DNA of 64,000 nt from an uncultured Pseudomonadota bacterium (GCA_963779795.1 CAVZZK010000004.1:129967-193966), one strand, 5' to 3'; shown: positions 1 to 61,584, numbered from the stretch's first letter. Program-made: numbers and translations. The notes: a model not told the origin generated them from the letters alone.

Positions 1-980
1 GCGTAATTCGGAAAGCCGAGCAGCTTGGCCTTCTGCGCGCGGATCTGCGCGATGCGTTCGATGGTCTTGCGCGTGTCGTTGGCGTCGCCCTTCTCGGTGC
101 GGTTCCAGGACGCTTCGAACAGGGCCTGACGCGTAGCACGATCGGACAGGTCCTGCAGGTCCGGCTGCTGCGTGGTGTTCTGCAGCGGGATCACCCACTT
201 GCCGTCGAGCTCGCGATCCTTTGCCGCCTGTGCGGCGGCGGCGATCTGCGCATCGGACAGCCCGGCCAGCTTGGACTTGTCGTCAACGACCAGGGCGCCG
301 GCCTTGGTCGCGGCCAGCAGCTTGTTCGAGAACGTGGCGCTGAGCGAGGATTCCTCCTCGTTTAGCTTCTTCAGCTTGGCCTTGTCGGCGGCTGACAGCC
401 TGGCACCGGCATGCACGAAATTCGCATGCACGACGTCGATTAGGCGCATCGACTCGGGATCGAGCTTGAGTTTGTCGCGTTCTTTGTAGACCGTGTCGAA
501 GCGCTGGAACAGCTTGTTGTTGAGATAAATCGCGTCGCGATGCGCGGCCAGTTTCGGCGCTTCGTCCTGCTGCACCTTCTGCAGGACCGGATCGGTGTTC
601 GCACTGCTGACACCGTTGAACACCATCATCGCGCGGCTCAGCAGTTCGCCGGTCTTCTCCATCGCCACGTAGGTATTCTCGAATGTCGGCGGTGCCGGAT
701 CGTTGGCGATCTTTTCGATCTCGGCGAGCTGTTGTTTCATGCCGGCTTCGATCGCCGGCTGATAGTCGCTGTCCCTGATCTTGTCGAACGGTGGCGCATG
801 GAACGGCAGCGTACTCTCGCTCATCAGCGGATTCACGTGCGGTGCCGGCTTGGCCGGCGGCGTGGTGGCCGCGGCAGCCGGAGCTGCCTCCGGCTTGGCC
901 GGTGCGGGATTCTGCTGGGATTGGGAACAGGCGGCGAGGGCGGCGGTCATGGCGATCAACAGCAAACGGGAATGCTGCAT
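1..980 (-). CDS. dcp: M3-family zinc metallopeptidase, peptidyl-dipeptidase Dcp-like. Only the N-terminal ~326 aa is present; the 3' end runs off the window
   Basis: My reverse-strand translation starts at ATG 980..978: MQHSRLLLIAMTAALAACSQ (lipoprotein-type signal). It continues PLMSESTLPFHAPPFDKIRDSDYQPAIEAGMKQQ ... PTFENTYVAMEKTGELL ... RIAQIRAQKAKLLGFPNYA and stays open to position 1. This is the typical N-terminal region of Dcp/M3 peptidases. The HEXXH motif would lie outside the window. Confidence 0.8.
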   Translation of the reverse strand, partial: MQHSRLLLIAMTAALAACSQSQQNPAPAKPEAAPAAAATTPPAKPAPHVNPLMSESTLPFHAPPFDKIRDSDYQPAIEAGMKQQLAEIEKIANDPAPPTFENTYVAMEKTGELLSRAMMVFNGVSSANTDPVLQKVQQDEAPKLAAHRDAIYLNNKLFQRFDTVYKERDKLKLDPESMRLIDVVHANFVHAGARLSAADKAKLKKLNEEESSLSATFSNKLLAATKAGALVVDDKSKLAGLSDAQIAAAAQAAKDRELDGKWVIPLQNTTQQPDLQDLSDRATRQALFEASWNRTEKGDANDTRKTIERIAQIRAQKAKLLGFPNY

Positions 981-4839: not shown

Positions 4840-5548
4840 CGGGCAGCGCATCGCGCAGATAAACCGCCAGCGCACCGGGATCCGGTGCGCTGGCGTACGG
4901 TAAAACGCCCAGGCATGGCGCGGCGAGTTTTTCGTGCAGCGTGGCCAGGTTGTCCTTGCCCCGCGCCATGCCCGCATCGACGTGATTGCCGATCCAACCG
5001 ATCAATTCACAGCCGTCCGCTTCGATCGCGCGCGCGCTGAGCATGGCGTGATTCAGGCAGCCCAGACGCAAGCCCACGACCAGAATCACCGGCAACTTCA
5101 AGCGGCGCGGCACGTCCGCGAGCATCAGCTTCGACGATAACGGCACCGACCAGCCGCCCACGCCTTCGACGACGACGATATCCGCTTGCCGCGCGAGCGC
5201 GTTGTAGGCATCGACGATTGAATCAAGTCTTATATTCGTGCCCGTATCGCGCGCGGCCAGGTGCGGCGCAATCGGATCGCGGAATGCGAACGGATTGACC
5301 AGGGCGTATTCCGGTCTGATGACGCTGTGTGCAGTGAGTGTTTCGGCATCGGCATTGCGCAAACCGTGCGCGGTCACCTGGCAACCGCTGGCGACCGGCT
5401 TCATGCCAAGCGCACGCATTCCTCCCTGGTTCAAGGCTGCCAGCAATGACGCCGATACCATTGTCTTGCCGATTTCGGTATCGGTGCCGGTGACGAATAC
5501 GCCACAGGTTGTTGAATCGCCCGGATGTTCGGTGGAATCTTCGTGCAA
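4805..5548 (-). CDS. bioD: Dethiobiotin synthetase
   Basis: The C-terminal ~245 aa of track ORF 4805..5962 carry the BioD motifs: P-loop FVTGTDTEIGKT, VVEGVGGW and LVVGLRLGCLNHA. The upstream part of that ORF is R/P-rich non-protein-like sequence. No ATG or GTG lies near the P-loop. The nearest in-frame starts are TTG 5548 and 5554, so the start is uncertain. Confidence 0.7.
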   Translation of the reverse strand: MHEDSTEHPGDSTTCGVFVTGTDTEIGKTMVSASLLAALNQGGMRALGMKPVASGCQVTAHGLRNADAETLTAHSVIRPEYALVNPFAFRDPIAPHLAARDTGTNIRLDSIVDAYNALARQADIVVVEGVGGWSVPLSSKLMLADVPRRLKLPVILVVGLRLGCLNHAMLSARAIEADGCELIGWIGNHVDAGMARGKDNLATLHEKLAAPCLGVLPYASAPDPGALAVYLRDALPVIASGACRAAP

Positions 5549-5625
5549 GAACAATCCAATCGGCGCGCTCGCGCCATCGTCGCGTAATGGAAGGGGTACA
5601 ATCGCATTTTTCTGCGGAATGTTCC

Positions 5626-6117
5626 ATGTTTGCTGCGGCGACCATCGACACCGATGACAAATCCGGGCTGTATGCCGAACTGGCGCAACAAGCGCGCGCG
5701 CTGCTGCAGGGCGAACCGGATCGAATCGCCAATGCGGCGAATTTCGCTGCGCTGGTTTTTCACGCGCTGCCGGACCTGAGCTGGGCCGGGTTTTATTTCT
5801 TCGACGGCAGGGAACTGGTCGTCGGTCCGTTCCAGGGCCAGCCGGCCTGCGTGCGTATCGCGCTGGGCAGGGGCGTGTGCGGCACCGCGGCGGCGACGCG
5901 TCAAACCATGGTGGTGGAAGATGTGGACCGGTTCGCGGGTCATATTCCCTGCGATGCGGCATCGCGGTCGGAGATTGTCGTGCCGTTGTATCGCGATGAT
6001 CGCCTGATCGGCGTGTGGGACGTCGATTCGCCGAAACTCGCGCGTTTCGACGAGGACGATCGGGCCGGCATGGAACAACTCGTGGAAATATTCATGGAAC
6101 AACTGGCAAAGGCATGA
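5626..6117 (+). CDS. msrC: GAF-domain protein, free methionine-(R)-sulfoxide reductase (YebR/MsrC)-like
   Basis: Internal ATG 5626 of ORF 5509..6117. The sequence WAGFYFFDGRELVVGPFQGQPACVRIALGRGVCGTAA ... GHIPCDAASRSEIVVPL closely parallels E. coli YebR. Confidence 0.75.
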   Translation: MFAAATIDTDDKSGLYAELAQQARALLQGEPDRIANAANFAALVFHALPDLSWAGFYFFDGRELVVGPFQGQPACVRIALGRGVCGTAAATRQTMVVEDVDRFAGHIPCDAASRSEIVVPLYRDDRLIGVWDVDSPKLARFDEDDRAGMEQLVEIFMEQLAKA

Positions 6118-17461: not shown

Positions 17462-19222
17462 GTGACCATTCGCAAAACCCTGCTTGTTGCATTCCTGGTC
17501 GCCGGACTCGCACCCGCCATACTTCTGGCGAGCCTGGCCTTTGTCAAGGCGCGTCAGGCTTTACAGGTGGAAATCGAACGCAGTCTGTCCGTTGAAGCCG
17601 AGGGCATAAGTGTCGGTCTCGACAAGGTGATGTTCGAGCGCCTGCAGAATGCGGCCATATGGCATCGGCTGGGCATCATGCAGGACATGCAGGTCCGGGA
17701 CGTGGACAAACGATTGTCCCGATTCCTTGCCGATCTCAAGACCGGATATCGAGGCGTCTACGAAAATCTTTCCTGCATCGATGAGAACGGTCGAATCATC
17801 AGCAGCTCCAATGCGGCGCTGGTCGGCAAGCGCTCCAACCCGGCGGCCCCGTGGTTGCAGACAAACCTGTCGGGGACCGAATTGACTCTACGCCTGCGTG
17901 CGGGCAAACCCACGCCGTCGGTATCCATCGATGCGGCGGTGTCTTCGCAGTTTGACAAGGGCGATTTGGGTATATTGCGGCTGCAACTGGATTGGTCCGA
18001 GATCAATGGCATGCTCGACCAGGCCAGCATTCACGGCCGGCGCATGCTGGCGGTTGTGGACGCCAAAGGCCGCCTGATCGCTGCATCATCGAATCTGCGT
18101 GCCCGCGGGCTATTGCTCGGCATGTCGTTGGCCGAGTGGCGTCAACCTGGCGATACGGTGGTCAGCAGAAACGGGAATCCCGTTATTGACGCGCAAGTGC
18201 TGGTGGGTAGCGCCGTCTCGCACGGGTATGCACAATTCAAGGGCTTCGGCTGGACCACCCTGATCGTACAACCGGAGAATCAGGCCTTCGCACCGATTCA
18301 CCACATGGCCCTGATCTTTGTCGGGCTGTTGGTACTGGTTGCCGTGTTCATCGCGTTGGCCGCGATATTGGTAAGCAAAACAATTGCCAAGCCGGTCGTC
18401 TCGCTGACCCGGTTTGCGCGAAGCTACATGCACGAAAAGGCATTGTCGGTACCGGCCGTGACCGGCAGTGGCGAAGTTCGCGAACTGACCGAAGCGTTCG
18501 TGCAGATGGTGCGCGATATCGATCGCTCGCAGCAAAATCTGATACGCGCCTCGAAACTGGCCGTGGTCGGGGAGATGTCTTCGATTATCGCCCACGAGGT
18601 GCGCACGCCGCTCGGCATCCTGCGTTCGTCGTCGCAAATGCTCAAACGCGAATCGACGATCAGCGACGAGGGGCGCGAGTTGGTCGGTTTCATTGAAAGC
18701 GAAACCGGACGCCTGAACCGTCTTGTGTCCGCAATGCTGGACACCGCCCGTGCCCGCGAACCGGTTTTCGAGCCGGTCGACGTGCATGCAATCATCCACC
18801 AATGCGTTTCCATGCTCGCCGTGCAGGCAAACGAGAAAGGGGTCGTCGTCGCCGAACACTTGTCCGCCAGGCGCACGAATGTGCCTGCGGATGAGGAACA
18901 GTTAACGCAAGTCGTGTTGAACTTGTTGATGAACGGATTGCAGATTCTGCAGCATGGCGGCCGCATCCGAATTGCCACACGGGACGCCGACGACGCATTG
19001 ATGATCGAGATCGCAGACGATGGACCCGGCATCGACCCAGCCGAGCGCGAGCGAGTGTTCGAGGCGTTCTTTTTCAAGCGCGAAGGCGGTGTGGGCCTGG
19101 GTCTTGCCATCGTGCAACAGATCGTGAATGCGCACGGTGGCAATATCGAAATCGACGACAGCGAACTCGGCGGTGCGCTGTTCCGTATCACCCTGCCGCG
19201 ACATCATCCGGAAAATACATGA
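17462..19222 (+). CDS. Sensor histidine kinase (TM / ~270-aa Cache-like periplasmic domain / TM / HAMP / HisKA / HATPase_c)
   Basis: Track ORF 17228..19222, whose first ~75 codons overlap the divergent OMP gene. I prefer GTG 17462 (VTIRKTLLVAFLVAGLAPAILL), or TTG 17453. H-box SIIAHEVRTPLGIL; N/G boxes LLMNGLQ, DDGPGI, GGVGLGLAI. Confidence 0.8.
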   Translation: MTIRKTLLVAFLVAGLAPAILLASLAFVKARQALQVEIERSLSVEAEGISVGLDKVMFERLQNAAIWHRLGIMQDMQVRDVDKRLSRFLADLKTGYRGVYENLSCIDENGRIISSSNAALVGKRSNPAAPWLQTNLSGTELTLRLRAGKPTPSVSIDAAVSSQFDKGDLGILRLQLDWSEINGMLDQASIHGRRMLAVVDAKGRLIAASSNLRARGLLLGMSLAEWRQPGDTVVSRNGNPVIDAQVLVGSAVSHGYAQFKGFGWTTLIVQPENQAFAPIHHMALIFVGLLVLVAVFIALAAILVSKTIAKPVVSLTRFARSYMHEKALSVPAVTGSGEVRELTEAFVQMVRDIDRSQQNLIRASKLAVVGEMSSIIAHEVRTPLGILRSSSQMLKRESTISDEGRELVGFIESETGRLNRLVSAMLDTARAREPVFEPVDVHAIIHQCVSMLAVQANEKGVVVAEHLSARRTNVPADEEQLTQVVLNLLMNGLQILQHGGRIRIATRDADDALMIEIADDGPGIDPAERERVFEAFFFKREGGVGLGLAIVQQIVNAHGGNIEIDDSELGGALFRITLPRHHPENT

Positions 19223-20595
19223 AGCGCAAACGAATACTGATCGTCGACGACGAATCGAAAATGCGGCGGGTTCTGGAGATCATGCTGCAGAAGATGGGGT
19301 ATCGCGTACTCAATGCCGGCGACGGCGCGGAGGCGCTCGATCGCTTTCAGGAAGACGCCGTGGATCTGGTCATTGCCGACCTGCGCATGCCCGGCATGGA
19401 CGGTATCGAGCTGTTGATCAAATTGCGCGAACGCGGTTCCGACGTGCCGGTGATCGTGATCACCGCACACGGCACCATCGACTCGGCCGTGGCCGCCATG
19501 AAGCATGGGGCGAGCGACTATATCCTGCGCCCGTTCGACATCGAGGCACTCGAACTGGCCATCCGCCGGGCGCTCGATGGCGTCGCCGTTGCACGCCAGA
19601 ACGCATTCATGCGCGAGGAGATCGAGAAGGAGTATGGTGCGTTTGTCGGCAACAGCCAGCCGATGCAATCCGTCTATCAGTTGATTCGCCAGGTCGGGCC
19701 GAGCAAGGCATCGGTATTCATTACCGGTGAAACCGGTACCGGCAAGGAACTGGTGGCACGTGCGATACATCAGGCCTCGCCGCGTTGCGACGCATTATTC
19801 GTGCCGATCAACTGCGCCGCGATTCCCGCCGATATGCTCGAGAGCGAGCTGTTCGGCTACGTGCGCGGCGCGTTTACCGGTGCCCTGAAAGATCGCATGG
19901 GCAAGTTCGAACTCGCCGATGGCGGTACCGTATTCCTCGATGAACTCACGGAAATGCCGGTGGCGCTGCAGGCCAAGTTGTTGCGCGTGCTGCAGGAAAG
20001 CCGGATCGAGCGACTTGGAAGCAATCGGCCCATCGACCCGGACATCCGCGTGATCGCCGCCACCAACCGCGATCCGGCCGGAGCGATCGATGACGGCAAG
20101 CTGCGCGAGGACCTGTACTACCGCATCAGCGTGGTGACGGTCGAAGTGCCCGCGTTGCGCGATCACCCCGAGGATATACCCGGCCTGATCGAGCACTTCA
20201 TTCACAAGCATGCCGGGCGTCGCATCGAACTGGAGCTGGACGAGGACGCATTCGCTCGATTGGCCGCGTACGCATGGCCAGGCAACGTGCGCGAGCTTGA
20301 AAACATGGTGGAGCGTGCGCTGATACTTTGCGGTGATGGCCCGTTGCAGGAGCGCCATTTGATTTTCCAGCCTGCACGGGGCGATACATCATCCGCACGT
20401 GGCGTCGATGCGGGTGGAACTGCCACGCCGGTGCCACTCAATCAGGCAGTCGACGAGCTGGAAGCGAAACTGATCGAATCAGCGCTGACGCAGGCCGGCG
20501 GCAACAAGGCCAAGGCGGCCGCGCTACTGGAGATCAGCGAGCGAACGCTGTGGTACAAGATCAAGAAACTGCGTGCCGAACAAACCGACTCCTGA
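19219..20595 (+). CDS. Sigma-54-dependent response regulator (NtrC family: REC + AAA+ + Fis-type HTH)
   Basis: ATGA overlap with the kinase stop. REC domain ILIVDDE...DLVIADLRMPGMDG. AAA+ domain GETGTGKELVARAIH and GAFTGA. C-terminal HTH GGNKAKAAALLEISERTLWYKIKK. Confidence 0.9.
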   Translation: MKRKRILIVDDESKMRRVLEIMLQKMGYRVLNAGDGAEALDRFQEDAVDLVIADLRMPGMDGIELLIKLRERGSDVPVIVITAHGTIDSAVAAMKHGASDYILRPFDIEALELAIRRALDGVAVARQNAFMREEIEKEYGAFVGNSQPMQSVYQLIRQVGPSKASVFITGETGTGKELVARAIHQASPRCDALFVPINCAAIPADMLESELFGYVRGAFTGALKDRMGKFELADGGTVFLDELTEMPVALQAKLLRVLQESRIERLGSNRPIDPDIRVIAATNRDPAGAIDDGKLREDLYYRISVVTVEVPALRDHPEDIPGLIEHFIHKHAGRRIELELDEDAFARLAAYAWPGNVRELENMVERALILCGDGPLQERHLIFQPARGDTSSARGVDAGGTATPVPLNQAVDELEAKLIESALTQAGGNKAKAAALLEISERTLWYKIKKLRAEQTDS

Positions 20596-56385: not shown

Positions 56386-56930
56386 CGGAGCAGTACAATC
56401 CCGGTTCCGCCCATGCGCAATCAGATGCGCCGAGGTAGACCGATCGACAAGGCCTTCAATTATAACAATTGCCGGCTCGATGCTGCAACACGGAAACGGC
56501 GCGAAGAATGATCGCGTTACGGCACAAATCGCCCCAGATTTCGCCCAATTGCACGATATTGTCGATATGTCCGCCGTCGAACCGCCTGAAGTCGACCGGA
56601 TGCTCCGCAATCCAGCCACGGCCCGCGAAGTCATGGTTCGTTGCAGGCCTCGCGCCGGGCCACAACGGATTGATATCGCCTTCAGCAGGGTACGAGAATT
56701 GCGCGTGGCGCGTGGTCGGTAAATCGGCCTCGCAAGTACGGTGTCACATCGGCATCAATGCTGTAGCTCGCGATCAGGCGCTGAGGGTCGGGCCCGAACG
56801 CACTCACGGAGTCGGCATGGCGTCTGGTTGGCTGCAGGAATGTAATGATTACCGCGGCTGCCTTGCGAGTGTGGTGCCGGCCTCGGCATAATCGGTAGCA
56901 TTCAGGGGTGTCAGTGCGCGGGGAAGCGAT

Positions 56931-57836
56931 ATGGGCAACGCGAAAGACTACTTCGTCGACGTTGCGGCAGGGCAGACCGTATTCAAAACCGGTCAAGCCG
57001 CGGAGTGTCTTTACGTCGTCGAATCCGGGCAGATCGATATCCTGCACGATGAACCGGCCGAAGTCGCGAATTTCAGCGTCGGACCGGGCGAATTTCTTGG
57101 CGAAGAGGCGGCGCTGGGCCACCAGAGCTATGGTGTTACCGCATTGGCCAAGTCGAATTGCCGCCTGCTGCGCATCGATCATGCTGCGCTGGCGGATACC
57201 GTGCGCCATACCCCGGACATCGGGCTGAGCCTGATCCGGGCGCTGGTGACCCGGCAATGGCACCGACAACATGCGCTGGTTCAGGCCTTGCAAATTCAAG
57301 CCAGCGCCGGGCTGGTCAGCCCGGCACCAGCACCGGCGGCAGCACGGCCGGCACCTTCGTCGTCTCCATCGCCTTCCGCGGCCCCGGTTTCGCCGCCGCC
57401 CGCGCCTGCGTCGTCTCCATCGCCTTCAGCGGCCCCGGTTTCGCCGCCACCCGTGCCTGCGTCGTCTCCATCGCCTTCCGCGGCCCCGGTTTCGCCGCCG
57501 CTCGCGCCTGAGGCGGTGGCCCTGCGGGTTGTTTCAGTCGATCAGGTCCTGGCGCTGGATCCGGCGCGCGATCAGTTCCAGGTCGGGCGCCCCGATCCGT
57601 CCACCGGCCGCGTGCCGGAAATCGACCTGGGTCCGTTCGACAACCTGCGTACCCTCAGTCGCCGCCACGCCAAAATCCTGCGCGACGGCGGCGTATACTT
57701 TATTTGCGAAGACACGCCGACAACCAACGGTACATTCCTCAACGGAAATCGTTTGCAGAGCGGTACGCGTGCCGAATTGAAACCAGGTGACAAGGTGTGC
57801 TTCGGTTCCATTGAGGTCGAAATCGTCGCCGCGTAG
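56931..57836 (+). CDS. Cyclic-nucleotide-binding domain / P-S-A-rich repeat linker / FHA domain protein
   Basis: ATG 56931 follows GGGGAAG. cNMP-binding beta-roll: VFKTGQAAECLYVVESGQIDIL...GPGEFLGEEAAL...TALAKSNCRLLRID. FHA: FQVGRPD...LSRRHAKILRDGGVYFICEDTPTTNGTFLNGNRL...GDKVCFGSIEVEI. Confidence 0.8.
   Translation: MGNAKDYFVDVAAGQTVFKTGQAAECLYVVESGQIDILHDEPAEVANFSVGPGEFLGEEAALGHQSYGVTALAKSNCRLLRIDHAALADTVRHTPDIGLSLIRALVTRQWHRQHALVQALQIQASAGLVSPAPAPAAARPAPSSSPSPSAAPVSPPPAPASSPSPSAAPVSPPPVPASSPSPSAAPVSPPLAPEAVALRVVSVDQVLALDPARDQFQVGRPDPSTGRVPEIDLGPFDNLRTLSRRHAKILRDGGVYFICEDTPTTNGTFLNGNRLQSGTRAELKPGDKVCFGSIEVEIVAA
57358..57510 (+). repeat. 3 x 51-bp near-identical tandem repeat inside the cNMP-FHA gene
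   Basis: Units 57358-57408, 57409-57459 and 57460-57510: CGTCGTCTCCATCGCCTTC(C/A)GCGGCCCCGGTTTCGCCGCC(G/A)C(C/T)CG(C/T)GCCTG. Each encodes SSPSPSAAPVSPP(P/L)(A/V)P(A/E). There are 3 or fewer differences per unit. Confidence 0.9.
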
Positions 57837-57851
57837 CTCATCGGAGGCAAG

Positions 57852-58814
57852 ATGGCAGATACCGAAAACAACTGGCAGAAGGCACTGGGCACCATCGATT
57901 TGTCGGCCATCGATTCGCTGAAGAAGCTCAAGCAGGAGCAGAATGAACTGTCCGAACGCCTGAAGTCGATGGAGGAACTCAAGGCCAGCGTGGCCGAGGC
58001 GGTTTACCAACGTGTGCAGGCCGATTACAGCAAGCGCACGCGGGATCTCGAGACCGAGGCTGCGCCGCTCAAGCAGGGCGCACGCGAACAATACGCAAAA
58101 TTGCGCGTGCTACTGGAACGATTCGAGTCCGATCACGAGGCGGTCAAGCTCGATCAGCAGGAGCTGGAGTTGCGCCACAAGCTCGGCGAATTCGATGACA
58201 AGGAATTTGAAAACAAGGTCAAGGCCATCCAGACCGCGGTCAAGGAAAAGGCGCAGGCGCGCACGCGGGCACTCGAGTTAAAGTCCAGGTTCATCGAGGC
58301 TTTTCATGCCGAGAGTGAGCTTGAGGCTACCGGCAAACCGGACAATCCGTCGGCGACCGGGCGCATGCCGGCTGTATCCGAATCAGCCGTCGCCGATGCG
58401 GTGGCGACGCGCTTGAACAACCAGAATTTGCCGCCGGACAAGCAACCGGGCAGGACCCAGACGATGTCCGCCGTAAATGTTCCCGCACCGCCACCGGCTG
58501 CCGGCGGCGCCACGCAGATATTCCGTGCGGCGCGGCTGGTGCCGCAGAACCCGGAGGCCGGCAGGCAGACTTACACTCTGACCTTGAAGCCGATCGCCAT
58601 CGGTGCCGGTGCCGGCAACGAAATTCGTGTTGGCGGTCCCGGCGTGGACGCCAAGCATGCGAGGATCATCGCCGGGGCCAATGGATTCAGCATCACGGAT
58701 CTGGGCAGCAAGCATGGTACGCGCGTGAATGCCGAGAAGGTCAAGGAACGCGTTTTGGCCAACGAGGACGTCGTGCAGATCGGTGCGGCACGTTTCGTGT
58801 TTCGCGAAGGCTGA
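57852..58814 (+). CDS. Coiled-coil / FHA domain protein
   Basis: ATG 57852 follows GGAGG. The N-terminal ~170 aa are heptad-rich and charged (KKLKQEQNELSERLKSMEELKASV...). C-terminal FHA: IAIGAGAGNEIRVGGPGVDAKHARIIAGANGFSITDLGSKHGTRVNAEKV...VQIGAARFVF. Confidence 0.8.
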   Translation: MADTENNWQKALGTIDLSAIDSLKKLKQEQNELSERLKSMEELKASVAEAVYQRVQADYSKRTRDLETEAAPLKQGAREQYAKLRVLLERFESDHEAVKLDQQELELRHKLGEFDDKEFENKVKAIQTAVKEKAQARTRALELKSRFIEAFHAESELEATGKPDNPSATGRMPAVSESAVADAVATRLNNQNLPPDKQPGRTQTMSAVNVPAPPPAAGGATQIFRAARLVPQNPEAGRQTYTLTLKPIAIGAGAGNEIRVGGPGVDAKHARIIAGANGFSITDLGSKHGTRVNAEKVKERVLANEDVVQIGAARFVFREG

Positions 58815-58820
58815 GAAAAA

Positions 58821-59453
58821 ATGGGCATCCAGATCCAGAACGAACAACACGACAACGTCCGCGTTCTGGCGCTTGGTGGGCGTCTGGATACGGAAACCGC
58901 CGCGGACGTCGAGATTGCTTTCGATGACCTGCTCGATGCGGGTGACCGTCACTTCCTGATCGACCTGGGCGGCATAGGCTATGTCAGCAGTGCCGGGTTG
59001 CGCGTGCTACTGGCACTGGCAAAGAAACTGGATGGCGGCAAGGGCAGTCTGCGGCTGTGTAGCCTCACGCCTGCGGTGCGTCAGGTATTTGATGTCGCCG
59101 GATTCAGCAAACTTTTCGCGATTGCCACCGATCGCGCCGCTGCATTGGGTACTCCGCCGCGGCCCAAGCCTGCGGCACGTCCGTCCAATCCGATGGCAGA
59201 ACATGCCGCGCGACTTCTTGGCCTTGGTGGCAAGCCGACCACGCCGGGCAACGCGGCAGCGGTCATTGCGCCTGTCGCTGCGCTGCTTCTCGGGATCCAG
59301 CCGACAGCGGCTGCGGCCGGAGCCAAGTCGTCGTCGCGTTCGTTGCCGCGGACACCGGTGCAGCCAACGGGGGGAGCGTCCGCAGCGCCCATTGCGGCAG
59401 AGTCTGCAGGTGTGATGGGCAAGTTCAAGCGCCTGTTTGGCGGCAAGCGCTGA
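58821..59453 (+). CDS. STAS-domain (SpoIIAA/RsbV-like anti-sigma-factor antagonist) protein with a ~100-aa P/A-rich tail and a basic amphipathic C-terminus
   Basis: LALGGRLDTETAADVEIAFDDLLDAGDRHFLIDLGGIGYVSSAGLRVLLALAKK. This includes the conserved phospho-acceptor context (V-S-S-x-G-L). The tail ends GVMGKFKRLFGGKR. Confidence 0.8.
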   Translation: MGIQIQNEQHDNVRVLALGGRLDTETAADVEIAFDDLLDAGDRHFLIDLGGIGYVSSAGLRVLLALAKKLDGGKGSLRLCSLTPAVRQVFDVAGFSKLFAIATDRAAALGTPPRPKPAARPSNPMAEHAARLLGLGGKPTTPGNAAAVIAPVAALLLGIQPTAAAAGAKSSSRSLPRTPVQPTGGASAAPIAAESAGVMGKFKRLFGGKR

Positions 59454-59475
59454 TTTCCGCGTGCTTTCGCACGGG

Positions 59476-61116
59476 TTATCGGTCGCGCGCTATGGTTATC
59501 AGCGTCAAATCGTCGCTCTGCGGTTCGCCATTGGTGAAATGCGCCAGCTCGGCGAGCAGGGCATTCAGTGCGTCTTGTGCTCCGGTGCCGCTGGCGGCCA
59601 TGGTTTCCACTATCCGTTGTTTGCCGAACAGTTGTTTTTCGGCGTTGTGCGCTTCGTCCAGGCCATCGGTGTAAAGCAGCAGACAACTGCCTGGCTCCAT
59701 GACCGCTGTCTGTTGCTGGAAAGTCGTATCTGATACCGCGCCCAGCGGAAGGGCGCCTTCGCTGCCCAGATCGCTGACACTACCCCGTGCGGAACGCTTC
59801 AGCGGTGCAGGGTGGCCGGCATTGGCGATTTCCAGTGCACCGCTGCCCGGTTCGATGGCCAATGCCAGCATGGTCACGAACATGCCCGGCTCCAGTTCCT
59901 GGGCCAGTTTGTGGTTCAGTGCGGTCAACAGTTCCTGCGGGCCGGACAACTGTTGCGCGAAAGCGCCAACCTGAACACTGAGCCTGGCCATGTACAACGC
60001 ACCGGATACGGCCTTGCCCGACACGTCGGCAATGACAATGCCCTCGCGGCCGTCGGCGAAGCGAATGAAGTCGTAATAGTCACCGCCGATTACGCGCGCG
60101 GCGGCATAGCTGTCGGCAATGCGATAACCCCGCCAAACAGGCGGCGACTGCGGCAGCAGGCGTTGCTGGATCCGCCGTGCCAGAGCCAGGTCATGGGCTT
60201 CGATGGCCCGATCAGGCGAACGCACCTGATGCGCGGCCACCATCCACGCGATCTGGCCGGCGACGGCAAGGAACAATTCCTGGTCGGCCGTGCGCCATGC
60301 GTCGGCGTGCTGCACACTTTCCAGATAGAACATGCCGAGCAGTTCGCGTCCGAAACGCAGCGGCAGGCCAAGCAGGGCCGCCGGCAGCGGCACTGCGTCG
60401 AAACGGGAGGTCAATGACTGGCGTTGGGCATCGTCGAGTACATTAAGGCCCTGCTCCCGACGCAGTGCCTCGCGCAGAAATACTTCGACCTTGGCAAAAG
60501 GATCGATCTTGTCATCTGCGTGGACGCGTTGCGCGAGTATGGACAAGTGTTGCGAGGCACTGTTGTAGCGGTAGACGGCGCCGCGGCCGGCCTTGGGAAA
60601 CGCCTGCATGATTGCATCGAGCGCTTGTTCTAGTTGTTCGCGCAATTCCTGTTGTCGCGAGGTTGCCCGTCCCAGTTCGGTGAACAGCTTCAGACGGGAA
60701 AGCAGATCGGATAGCCCGCTGGATATGGGTGTTGTCGGCGCGCGATGGGAGTGTGGTCCGGTACGAGCGGCTACTCGCGCATGGGCTGTCGGGTCGGGTT
60801 CGTCAGCGGTGGGTGGTACCTCGTCTTGCATCGAACGGCGGTAGGTTGCCTTGACGTCACCGAATCGCAAATCGTCCCCGTCGTGAAGGACCGCGACCTG
60901 ACTGATGCGCCGGCCGTGCAAGACGGTGCCGTTGGCACTGTTCTGATCGTGCAGTTCGTAGGCGTCGCCATTGCGTCGCAGCAACGCGTGTTGGCGCGAT
61001 ACCGTGGGGTCATTCAAGCGTACGTCGCAAAGCTGGCCGCGACCGATAACGGCGTTGTCCGAGAAACTGAATACCTGGCCGGCCAGGGCGCCGGATGTGA
61101 TGATCAGATTCGGCAT
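59476..61116 (-). CDS. FHA / GAF / PP2C (SpoIIE/RsbU-type) serine phosphatase
   Basis: Start at ATG 61116 (MPNLIITSGALAGQVFSF). FHA: AVIGRGQLCDVRLNDPTVSRQHALLRRNGDAYELHDQNSANGTVLHGRRI. The central region is GAF-like. PPM motifs: IGGDYYDF, VIADVSGKAVSGALYMA, LLLYTDGLDEA, QSDDLTLI. Confidence 0.85.
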   Translation of the reverse strand: MPNLIITSGALAGQVFSFSDNAVIGRGQLCDVRLNDPTVSRQHALLRRNGDAYELHDQNSANGTVLHGRRISQVAVLHDGDDLRFGDVKATYRRSMQDEVPPTADEPDPTAHARVAARTGPHSHRAPTTPISSGLSDLLSRLKLFTELGRATSRQQELREQLEQALDAIMQAFPKAGRGAVYRYNSASQHLSILAQRVHADDKIDPFAKVEVFLREALRREQGLNVLDDAQRQSLTSRFDAVPLPAALLGLPLRFGRELLGMFYLESVQHADAWRTADQELFLAVAGQIAWMVAAHQVRSPDRAIEAHDLALARRIQQRLLPQSPPVWRGYRIADSYAAARVIGGDYYDFIRFADGREGIVIADVSGKAVSGALYMARLSVQVGAFAQQLSGPQELLTALNHKLAQELEPGMFVTMLALAIEPGSGALEIANAGHPAPLKRSARGSVSDLGSEGALPLGAVSDTTFQQQTAVMEPGSCLLLYTDGLDEAHNAEKQLFGKQRIVETMAASGTGAQDALNALLAELAHFTNGEPQSDDLTLITIARDR

Positions 61117-61206
61117 TCGTAAACTGATCGAAGTGGCGTCAAGACCAGTGTGGCACAAAGCGGCGTGGTGGGGGATGATGACGGAGGTCCACTCCGGAAT
61201 CCCGTC

Positions 61207-61584
61207 ATGCCCATAGCGTATTGGTGTTTGTTGCTGGCAGCGATGTTGCCGCTGCTATGGACCGGCGTAGCCAAGACAATCCAACGCCGACACTTCGACA
61301 ATCGCAAGCCGCGGGACTTCCAGGCACGCCTGGACGGCATGGCGCAGCGGGCACATTGGGCGCATCTGAATTCATTCGAGGCTTTCGCGCCTTTTGCGGC
61401 TGGCGTGCTGGCGGCCGAACAGCTGTCGGCGCCACAGGGGAGAATCGATGAGCTGGCGATCGCCTTCGTTACGCTACGCGTGGTTTATGGCTTGTGCTAT
61501 CTCGCAAATCAGGCAACGTTGCGCAGCCTGGTGTGGGCCGCGGGGATGGTTTGCACGGTCGCACTTTTCATTATCGCGGCGTAA
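61207..61584 (+). CDS. MAPEG-family membrane protein
   Basis: ATG 61207. MPIAYWCLLLAAMLPLLWTG...HWAHLNSFEAFAPFAAGVL...LRVVYGLCYL; 125 aa, 3-4 TM. Confidence 0.7.
   Translation: MPIAYWCLLLAAMLPLLWTGVAKTIQRRHFDNRKPRDFQARLDGMAQRAHWAHLNSFEAFAPFAAGVLAAEQLSAPQGRIDELAIAFVTLRVVYGLCYLANQATLRSLVWAAGMVCTVALFIIAA

Follow-up and report, generated by a model that had tools for sequence, protein, structure and literature searches.

Does a group of four adjacent genes that combines FHA, cyclic-nucleotide-binding (cNMP), STAS, GAF and PP2C domains, found in an uncultured soil bacterium of the Pseudomonadota, form one signalling system, and if so, does it belong to a known type? The genes lie in a 64,000-nucleotide stretch of DNA (GCA_963779795.1 CAVZZK010000004.1:129967-193966; the whole of this stretch is referred to here as the window), and we call them g1 to g4. 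We found, from gene order across related genomes, that they are one conserved and vertically inherited signalling module of Rudaea-like Xanthomonadales, within which the g1-g2-g3 operon is on the same evidence the ancient conserved core and g4 was added in this lineage. The genes were called as follows:

56931-57836, plus strand: g1, cNMP-fold and FHA protein, 301 aa
57852-58814, plus strand: g2, coiled-coil and FHA protein, 320 aa, beginning after a gap of 15 nt
58821-59453, plus strand: g3, STAS protein with a tail, 210 aa, beginning after a gap of 6 nt
59476-61116, minus strand: g4, FHA-GAF-PP2C phosphatase, 546 aa from its ATG, convergent with g3, the two stop codons 22 nt apart

These open reading frames (ORFs) agree with an earlier note on this DNA, made from the sequence alone, which had described three genes spaced by 6-15 nt and a convergent fourth gene 22 nt away. 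The mechanical ORF of g4 reaches back to a TTG at 61158, and since all orthologues begin at an ATG (MPxLI) the true start is at 61116. Pfam gathering scores were used as the cut-off for domain calls, and every call made for g1-g4 in the earlier note was found to exceed them.

We scanned for relatives with an alignment of g2, using one genome per species, which gave 78 loci, and 80 metagenome loci were added later. The 78 loci are mostly from genomes named Rudaea, Rhodanobacteraceae, Lysobacterales/Lysobacteraceae, Tahibacter, Dokdonella or Ahniellaceae, or from metagenome-assembled genomes (MAGs) with the generic names (Gamma)proteobacteria or Pseudomonadota; one, in a Planctomycetota MAG, matches weakly and through the FHA domain only. 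The recurring order, as mapped by tblastn, is the atp operon, a variable insert, g1 (+), g2 (+), g3 (+), g4 (−), a MAPEG gene (+), a phasin gene (−) and queD (−). No fewer than 26 species-level genomes carry all four genes in this arrangement and on these strands, so the neighbourhood is conserved and not a chance juxtaposition. Where g2 reached at least 55% identity, coarse thresholds detected g1 in 80 of 96 testable loci, g3 in 79 of 84 and g4 in 49 of 56, the figure for g1 being an undercount, as a full g1 was missed by the filter in one locus (L003; loci are cited by these numbers below).

The phyletic pattern is nested. Wherever a locus with g4 is long enough to test, g4 adjoins g3, with one exception in the coarse scan (L155). 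Tahibacter-type genomes (L039-41, L063-66, L068, L069, L071) carry g2 and g3, and g1 where it was detected, with nothing between g3 and the MAPEG gene, and in a further set of genomes (L048, L052, L053, L055-58, L077) g2 stands alone between atpB and the phasin gene. This nesting identifies g2 as the anchor, g1-g2-g3 as a widespread operon and the phosphatase as a lineage-specific addition. The earlier note had placed a STAS-PP2C pair at the centre of the module, and this has to be given up: g1-g2-g3 persists without g4 in the Tahibacter-type genomes and, rearranged, in two distant genomes (L165 and L168), one of which has Ala in place of the STAS phospho-acceptor, so to read the cluster as a partner-switch pair with accessories inverts the evolutionary hierarchy. 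The cultured Tahibacter aquaticus DSM 21667 carries g1, g2 and g3 and offers an experimentally tractable entry point. Near-identical copies of the locus were seen on separate contigs of single MAGs, L005 and L007 in MFD01872.bin.2.240 and L018 and L023 in SMAG_U735, which more likely reflect strain heterogeneity or binning redundancy than true duplication.

The two distant genomes were reached through the N-terminal domain of g2, which by homology defines a coiled-coil family without a Pfam model that extends across several phyla. When 1.84 billion representatives were searched exhaustively with phmmer, the family came to 477 clusters at 50% identity, 305 of them with E ≤ 1e−10, and named members include Thermoanaerobaculia (Acidobacteriota). 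Among the 150 matches listed, the domain lies at the protein N-terminus in nearly all and most proteins are 300-470 aa long; in all 44 family members which we aligned, the N-domain is joined to an FHA domain by a variable linker rich in Pro or acidic residues. A profile of the domain searched against a word-indexed protein database recovered 24 close fragments only and the metagenome scan recovered relatives of 62-83% identity only, neither of them reaching the distant family, and the gene contexts of distant members were obtained by exact look-ups of the representatives hit by phmmer.

The gene neighbourhoods of distant members are variable. Two independent genomes of 71% GC, whose proteins are 38-60% identical to each other, nevertheless hold a cNMP-FHA gene, a STAS gene and a coiled-coil-FHA gene together in rearranged order (L165, 2431-7209; L168, 5564-11585). 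The gene set of both consists of a sigma-54 activator that has neither a receiver nor any other sensor domain at its N-terminus, the cNMP-FHA protein, the STAS protein, the coiled-coil-FHA protein and, encoded between the last two, an outer membrane protein (OMP) beta-barrel; neither locus contains a phosphatase or a kinase. Their cNMP-FHA proteins have a peculiar GRxDPxTGxxP loop in common with g1. That the triad survives rearrangement over such a large phylogenetic distance is the strongest evidence in this analysis for a functional link between its members. It is possible that the neighbouring sigma-54 activator serves as an output, regulated in trans as a bacterial enhancer-binding protein, and that the beta-barrel provides a link to the envelope.

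Other neighbours of coiled-coil-FHA genes were also observed. At L166 (7001-15194), L168 (5564-6748) and a JGI contig of P0323 the gene stands beside a DUF7005 protein and/or an FHA-FHA-ABC transporter of Rv1747-like architecture, the latter coming with a C39-peptidase ABC exporter, and at L166 a Pkinase gene lies 4 kb from the coiled-coil-FHA gene. In two Thermoanaerobaculia loci (L161, 1427-3198; L162, 3245-5016) the gene for a protein with MshEN, a fold which binds cyclic di-GMP, lies 75 nt upstream of the coiled-coil-FHA gene. It holds the position which the cNMP-FHA gene has in Xanthomonadales, and a second-messenger-type domain thus precedes g2 homologues in two unrelated contexts.

The anchor protein g2 has three parts:

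g2 aa 1-158, plus strand: N-terminal coiled-coil domain, with three helices at 18-42, 49-110 and 116-151 in the AlphaFold2 (AF2) model
g2 aa 159-222, plus strand: disordered linker with conserved Thr motifs at T169, T202 (TQxM) and T221
g2 aa 227-319, plus strand: degenerate FHA domain (Pfam match aa 250-311, 46.2 bits)

The AF2 model (pLDDT 87.9) consists of a three-helix coiled coil, a disordered linker and an FHA domain, which together with the Pfam match bears out the long coiled coil and FHA domain first proposed for this gene. Among the 50 Foldseek matches listed for the model there were FHA matches only and none to the N-domain, and weak NCBIfam and PADLOC matches of the N-domain to SMC, JetC and LmuB were set aside as generic coiled-coil similarity. 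The closest solved structures to the FHA domain are GarA/OdhI (sequence E = 2e−8; Foldseek E = 4e−10, root mean square deviation 1.3 Å). In a HMMER alignment to GarA, A252, D266 and H288 of g2 occupy the positions of the phosphate-binding Arg, Ser and Asn; these substitutions are fixed throughout the Xanthomonadales subfamily, whereas the FHA loops of distant members of the family are canonical. The g2 FHA domain also matches the phospho-independent YscD-type model PF16697. Judged by these residues, g2 has become a pseudo-reader whose FHA domain has lost phosphate binding, and the three phosphothreonine (pThr) readers counted earlier are reduced to two, those of g1 and g4, which have the canonical pThr-binding loops that g2 lacks.

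In the linker of g2, Thr169 (TGRM), Thr202 (TQTM) and Thr221 (TQIF) are invariant in 27 close homologues amid variable sequence, Thr221 is invariant in 44 diverse family members, and a T-[QV]-x-[ML] motif extends to the genomes with g2 only and to distant members of the family. Bacterial FHA domains usually prefer pT-x-x-hydrophobic, and the linker motifs are for this reason candidate docking sites. A correlation of the first motif (T169-x-x-hydrophobic) with the presence of g4 was considered and dropped, as it was not clean.

The protein upstream, g1, has the following features:

g1 aa 10-91, plus strand: cNMP-binding domain (PF00027, 59.6 bits)
57347-57510, plus strand: tandem repeat in the g1 linker, 3.2 copies of a 51-bp unit (Tandem Repeats Finder, 91% matches, score 279)
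g1 aa ~214-298, plus strand: FHA domain (Pfam match aa 238-292, 46.5 bits)

Pfam and Tandem Repeats Finder thus agree with the cyclic-nucleotide-binding domain, repeat linker and FHA domain described for g1. The 51-bp repeat encodes 17-aa units SSPSPSAAPVSPPPAPA in a linker of Pro/Ser/Ala repeats, an expansion of the window protein's own; the low-complexity linkers of the module evolve fast. The FHA domain is canonical, its GR...LSRRHA...NGT motifs being kept at ≥ 90% in 40 orthologues. In the phosphate-binding cassette of the cNMP domain Gly57 and Glu58 are retained and Tyr67 replaces the phosphate-binding Arg, the residue which binds the cyclic phosphate in CAP and PKA; of 40 aligned g1 sequences, the window included, 20 have Arg at this position, 18 have His and 2 have Tyr. 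The fold is therefore present in the window protein and the G-E-x-A...R-[ST]-A pattern of CAP/PKA-type sensors, with its Arg, is absent, which makes cyclic-nucleotide sensing by this g1 doubtful. The suggestion of two small-molecule sensor domains in the cluster holds in as far as both the cNMP and the GAF folds pass Pfam, and is doubtful for the first as a working sensor.

A STAS domain, its acceptor Ser and the end of the tail are the features of interest in g3:

g3 aa 5-106, plus strand: STAS domain (Pfam, 65 bits)
58989-58991, plus strand: acceptor Ser57, aligned with the SpoIIAA phospho-acceptor Ser58
59412-59450, plus strand: C-terminal basic amphipathic segment VMGKFKRLFGGKR, a candidate MinD-like membrane-targeting helix

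The assignment of g3 as a SpoIIAA-like STAS protein with a phosphorylatable Ser and a Pro/Ala-rich tail is upheld by Pfam, by the alignment of Ser57 and by the NCBIfam model TIGR00377 ("anti-sigma factor antagonist"), whose cutoff of 53.45 bits it exceeds with a score of 73.8. Orthologues conserve the motif YvSSAGL, with SSAGL at ≥ 90% in 60 orthologues; exceptions at the acceptor are the STAS protein of L168, which has Ala, and that of the Tahibacter-type L039, which has Asn. The Ala/Pro-rich tail is ~100 aa long and contains two A..AA.LLG motifs. Its end, VMGKFKRLFGGKR, is present in most orthologues and matches the membrane-targeting sequence (MTS) of Escherichia coli MinD, KGFLKRLFGG (PMC5471200), at 7 of 10 positions, and its hydrophobic moment is 0.51, compared with 0.3-0.76 in 11 orthologues and 0.45 for the MinD MTS. 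This likeness suggests that g3 is probably held at the inner membrane through a MinD-like C-terminal helix. We found no published STAS antagonist with a MinD-like tail in the openly searchable full-text literature, subscription literature being outside this coverage. In some relatives the tail is hugely expanded, giving g3 proteins of 326-403 aa (L012, L013, L032) or 253-281 aa (L026, L027, L029, L030, L037); the added sequence consists of AAKAEAAK-type or Pro/Lys-rich repeats, and both A..AA.LLG motifs and the C-terminal basic helix are kept.

The convergent gene g4 encodes three domains:

60838-61116, minus strand: canonical FHA domain, g4 aa 1-93 (Pfam, 69.3 bits)
60223-60717, minus strand: GAF domain, g4 aa 134-298 (Pfam, 31.7 bits)
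59485-60126, minus strand: SpoIIE/RsbU-type PP2C domain, g4 aa 331-544 (PF07228, 155.2 bits)

Its AF2 model (pLDDT 81) shows the FHA domain, a disordered linker, the GAF domain, a helical connector and the PP2C domain. In 29 homologues the FHA residues G25, R26, S40, R41, H43, N62 and G63, which lie in the loops GRGQ...VSRQHA...SANGT, are invariant, as are the metal-binding residues D346, D349, D364, D484, D535 and D536, and the PP2C domain has the conserved motifs GGDYYDF, ADVSGK, YTDGLDEA and QSDDLTL. The top Foldseek and phmmer matches to the PP2C domain were RssB-PP2C, the RsbU domain of Rv1364c, SiaA-PP2C and SpoIIE, and these phosphatases of partner switches outrank PstP, Stp1 and PppA, which are partners of Hanks-type kinases (PppA was 38th in Foldseek). 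The architecture first read as FHA-GAF-PP2C of the RsbU/SpoIIE type is thus supported by Pfam, by the invariant Asp residues and by the closest structures, and g4 is likely to be an active phosphatase of the RsbU/SpoIIE/SiaA/RssB type, which acts on STAS-like substrates. A stand-alone GAF protein (PF01590, 48.5 bits) is encoded at 5509-6117 on the plus strand, 51 kb away from g1-g4, and no sign of a connection with g4 was seen.

We also looked for a kinase, a sigma factor and an output partner. Pfam scans of 30 further window proteins (RND-type, atp and glm genes were not individually scanned) found no Pkinase, HATPase_c_2 or sigma-70 factor, and no type VI secretion system (T6SS) genes were seen among the scanned proteins; two ordinary HisKA kinases were detected, as was an NtrC-type sigma-54 activator (19219-20595, 37 kb from the cluster). 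When the window and 165 related loci (1.63 Mb) were searched with a regular expression for the Hanks catalytic loop, the only match was in one unrelated Planctomycetota locus. The related loci contain no RsbW-type kinase, the conserved flanks leaving no room for one, and no conserved candidate for an output partner, the sigma-54 activator adjoining the triad in L165 and L168 only. For the scanned window genes, then, the earlier note was right that no RsbW-type kinase, Hanks kinase, sigma-70 factor or secretion gene lies in cis, and its impression that this is not a described system is shared by us, as no description of the cluster or its parts was found in the same literature.

How might such a module work? 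The reading which we tentatively prefer, at somewhat less than an even chance, is that of a conserved phospho-signalling module with its kinase in trans, in which an FHA-scaffolded assembly resembling a partner switch forms at the membrane and acts on an unlinked partner. We infer the following sequence of steps. A Ser/Thr kinase encoded elsewhere would phosphorylate the linker threonines of g2 and/or Ser57 of g3; g1 and g4 would attach through their canonical FHA domains to the phosphorylated threonines of the g2 scaffold; and this docking would bring the g4 phosphatase beside the phosphorylated STAS domain. Gated by its GAF domain, g4 would remove the phosphate and so reset the membrane-tethered g3, and the dephosphorylated STAS protein would bind its unlinked partner. 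Several of our results weigh against this scheme. No kinase of either type is present in the window or in ~160 related loci, and phosphorylation is accordingly putative; the cNMP pocket of g1 is degenerate in the window genome; the g2 FHA domain is degenerate even in genomes which carry g2 alone; and the triad exists without a cis phosphatase, with the STAS acceptor replaced by Ala in L168 and by Asn in one Tahibacter orthologue, which indicates that the ancestral module could function without STAS phosphorylation.

A classical sigma-factor partner switch would assign the parts differently, with g4 as RsbU, g3 as RsbV, an RsbW and a sigma factor encoded elsewhere and g1 and g2 as accessory inputs. 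The TIGR00377 score and retained acceptor Ser of g3 and the RsbU/SpoIIE-type PP2C domain of g4 speak for this, but we think it unlikely, given that neither RsbW nor a sigma factor is found in cis in the window or ~160 loci, that the conserved core is g1-g2-g3 and not g3-g4, that the ~100-aa tail of g3 with its membrane-targeting-like end is foreign to RsbV/SpoIIAA, and that one distant STAS orthologue has an Ala acceptor. The opposite view dispenses with phosphorylation altogether: the FHA and STAS folds would be plain interaction modules of a membrane scaffold, comparable to YscD-type FHA domains and to the phospho-independent binding of enzymes by GarA, and the PP2C domain would have another substrate or a structural role. 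Here the g2 FHA domain without phosphate-binding residues and with its PF16697 match, the lack of a cis kinase in the window or related loci, and the triads without a phosphatase, once with Ala at the STAS acceptor, all fit well. This view leaves aside that no canonical pThr-binding residue has been lost from g1 or g4, where these FHA residues are strongly conserved, that the catalytic residues of g4 are invariant and that Thr221 and TQxM of g2 are conserved inside an otherwise variable linker, and we consider it improbable too.

A chance juxtaposition, an accessory to secretion (T6SS Fha/PppA or type III YscD) or an anti-phage defence island is essentially refuted. Similarity of the FHA domains to the TagH and YscD-type models and a weak similarity of the cNMP domain to Pycsar effectors could have pointed this way, but the TagH model TIGR03354 scores 42.6 and 43.0 bits, far below its cutoff of 120, the scanned window proteins include no secretion genes, and synteny extends across many genera beside housekeeping genes (the atp operon, phasin and queD). 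PADLOC gave no system-level match, with nothing beyond the cNMP-fold similarity and the generic coiled-coil matches, and a defence role was rejected. There is also a broader proposal, which we regard as rather doubtful: the triad of cNMP-fold-FHA, coiled-coil-FHA and STAS proteins would be an unrecognised multi-phylum signalling system, with its STAS protein at the membrane, which controls a receiver-less sigma-54 activator in some lineages; in Rudaea-like bacteria it would have been rewired, through loss of phosphate binding by the scaffold FHA domain and recruitment of an FHA-GAF-PP2C protein, into a partner switch driven by pThr docking and not by an RsbW-type kinase.

Among the known systems compared, the module would work most like a partner-switching module. 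Partner switches are represented in Bacillus by RsbU-RsbV-RsbW and SpoIIE-SpoIIAA-SpoIIAB, and Gram-negative relatives with outputs other than sigma factors include HsbR/HsbA, SiaA/SiaB/SiaC, RssB/RssC and BtrU/V/W. As in these, g3 is a single-domain STAS protein with its acceptor Ser in the SpoIIAA position and adjoins a sensor-linked PPM phosphatase whose nearest relatives are those of such switches. In contrast to them, no RsbW-type kinase/anti-sigma factor or output partner occurs in cis in any relative, an FHA domain is attached to the phosphatase, the long tail of the STAS protein ends in a MinD-like helix, and the g3-g4 pair is subordinate to an operon of FHA proteins, with a phosphatase that is dispensable in sister lineages. 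Since two of the four defining features of partner switches (the kinase/anti-sigma factor and the output) are absent in cis, we do not class the module as a member.

The small FHA regulators GarA and OdhI of Actinobacteria resemble g2 in having a Thr-bearing disordered segment upstream of the FHA domain, and GarA also binds partners without phosphate. They differ from g2 in keeping the Arg, Ser and Asn that are Ala, Asp and His here; the 158-aa coiled coil of g2 is absent from GarA, and no link of g2 to enzymes of the tricarboxylic acid cycle is evident. The threonine-phosphorylation pathway of the T6SS (PpkA-PppA-Fha1/TagH) likewise has an FHA reader and a PP2C phosphatase encoded together, but there are no Hanks kinase or T6SS genes here, the TagH scores are below cutoff as given above and the PP2C domain of g4 is nearer to the RsbU/SpoIIE type than to PppA. 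In Mycobacterium tuberculosis the kinase PknD phosphorylates the STAS protein Rv0516c, a homologue of anti-anti-sigma factors (PMC1847690). A Hanks-type kinase which acts on a STAS protein from a separate locus, and so links pThr signalling to a STAS switch, has its precedent here; that system differs in having neither an FHA scaffold nor an FHA-PP2C protein. The site used by PknD is reportedly an N-terminal Thr and not the SpoIIAA-type Ser.

Partner switching and FHA/Hanks-kinase signalling are usually treated separately, and a conserved module of this kind would show wiring between the two in Gram-negative bacteria. The module combines FHA readers with an RsbU-type phosphatase that itself bears an FHA domain and with a STAS protein that is probably tethered to the membrane, and the usual RsbW kinase is absent in cis. 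For now it is of consequence only to those who specialise in bacterial signalling.

The surroundings of the cluster identify the host. The minus-strand genes upstream of g1 form the atp operon (atpI, B, E, F, H, A, G, D, C), of which atpI was confirmed by Pfam and the other genes were assigned from translations and tblastn; downstream of g4 are genes for a MAPEG protein, a phasin, QueD (assigned from its translation and tblastn), a 2-oxoglutarate-Fe dioxygenase and RpiA. Compared with Rudaea MAGs, the AtpA protein reaches 93% identity, its best matches all bear Rudaea-type names, and by this measure the host is an uncultured Rudaea-like member of the Xanthomonadales/Lysobacterales. An exact-sequence look-up of the window proteins returned singleton clusters only, without names. 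Scans of the window for Rfam families and tRNAs gave no matches.

One candidate promoter precedes the operon:

56863-56892, plus strand: sigma-70-like promoter match TTGCGA-18-CATAAT, 39 nt upstream of the g1 start, a candidate operon promoter

Two such matches were found in the region and 1.2 would be expected by chance, so the evidence is weak. A sigma-54 promoter upstream of g1 was rejected, the number of matches being at chance level with none on the plus strand upstream of g1.

At the other end of the cluster, g4 and the MAPEG gene are divergent, separated by an intergenic region of ~90 nt (61117-61206) if translation of MAPEG begins with the ATG at 61207; were its longest ORF used, from a GTG at 61150, just 33 nt would be left before g4. 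In relatives, the genes that separate atpI from g1 code for a secreted esterase, which in some loci is accompanied by a GH18-like protein. They are unrelated to the module, and the variable insert was rejected as a source of hidden partner genes. The esterase gene is full length in relatives (316-376 aa) and has been lost in the window genome, where a 46-codon relic of the esterase C-terminus is left at 56507-56629 on the minus strand, identical to the esterase of L006 at 17 of 46 positions (E = 3e−7).

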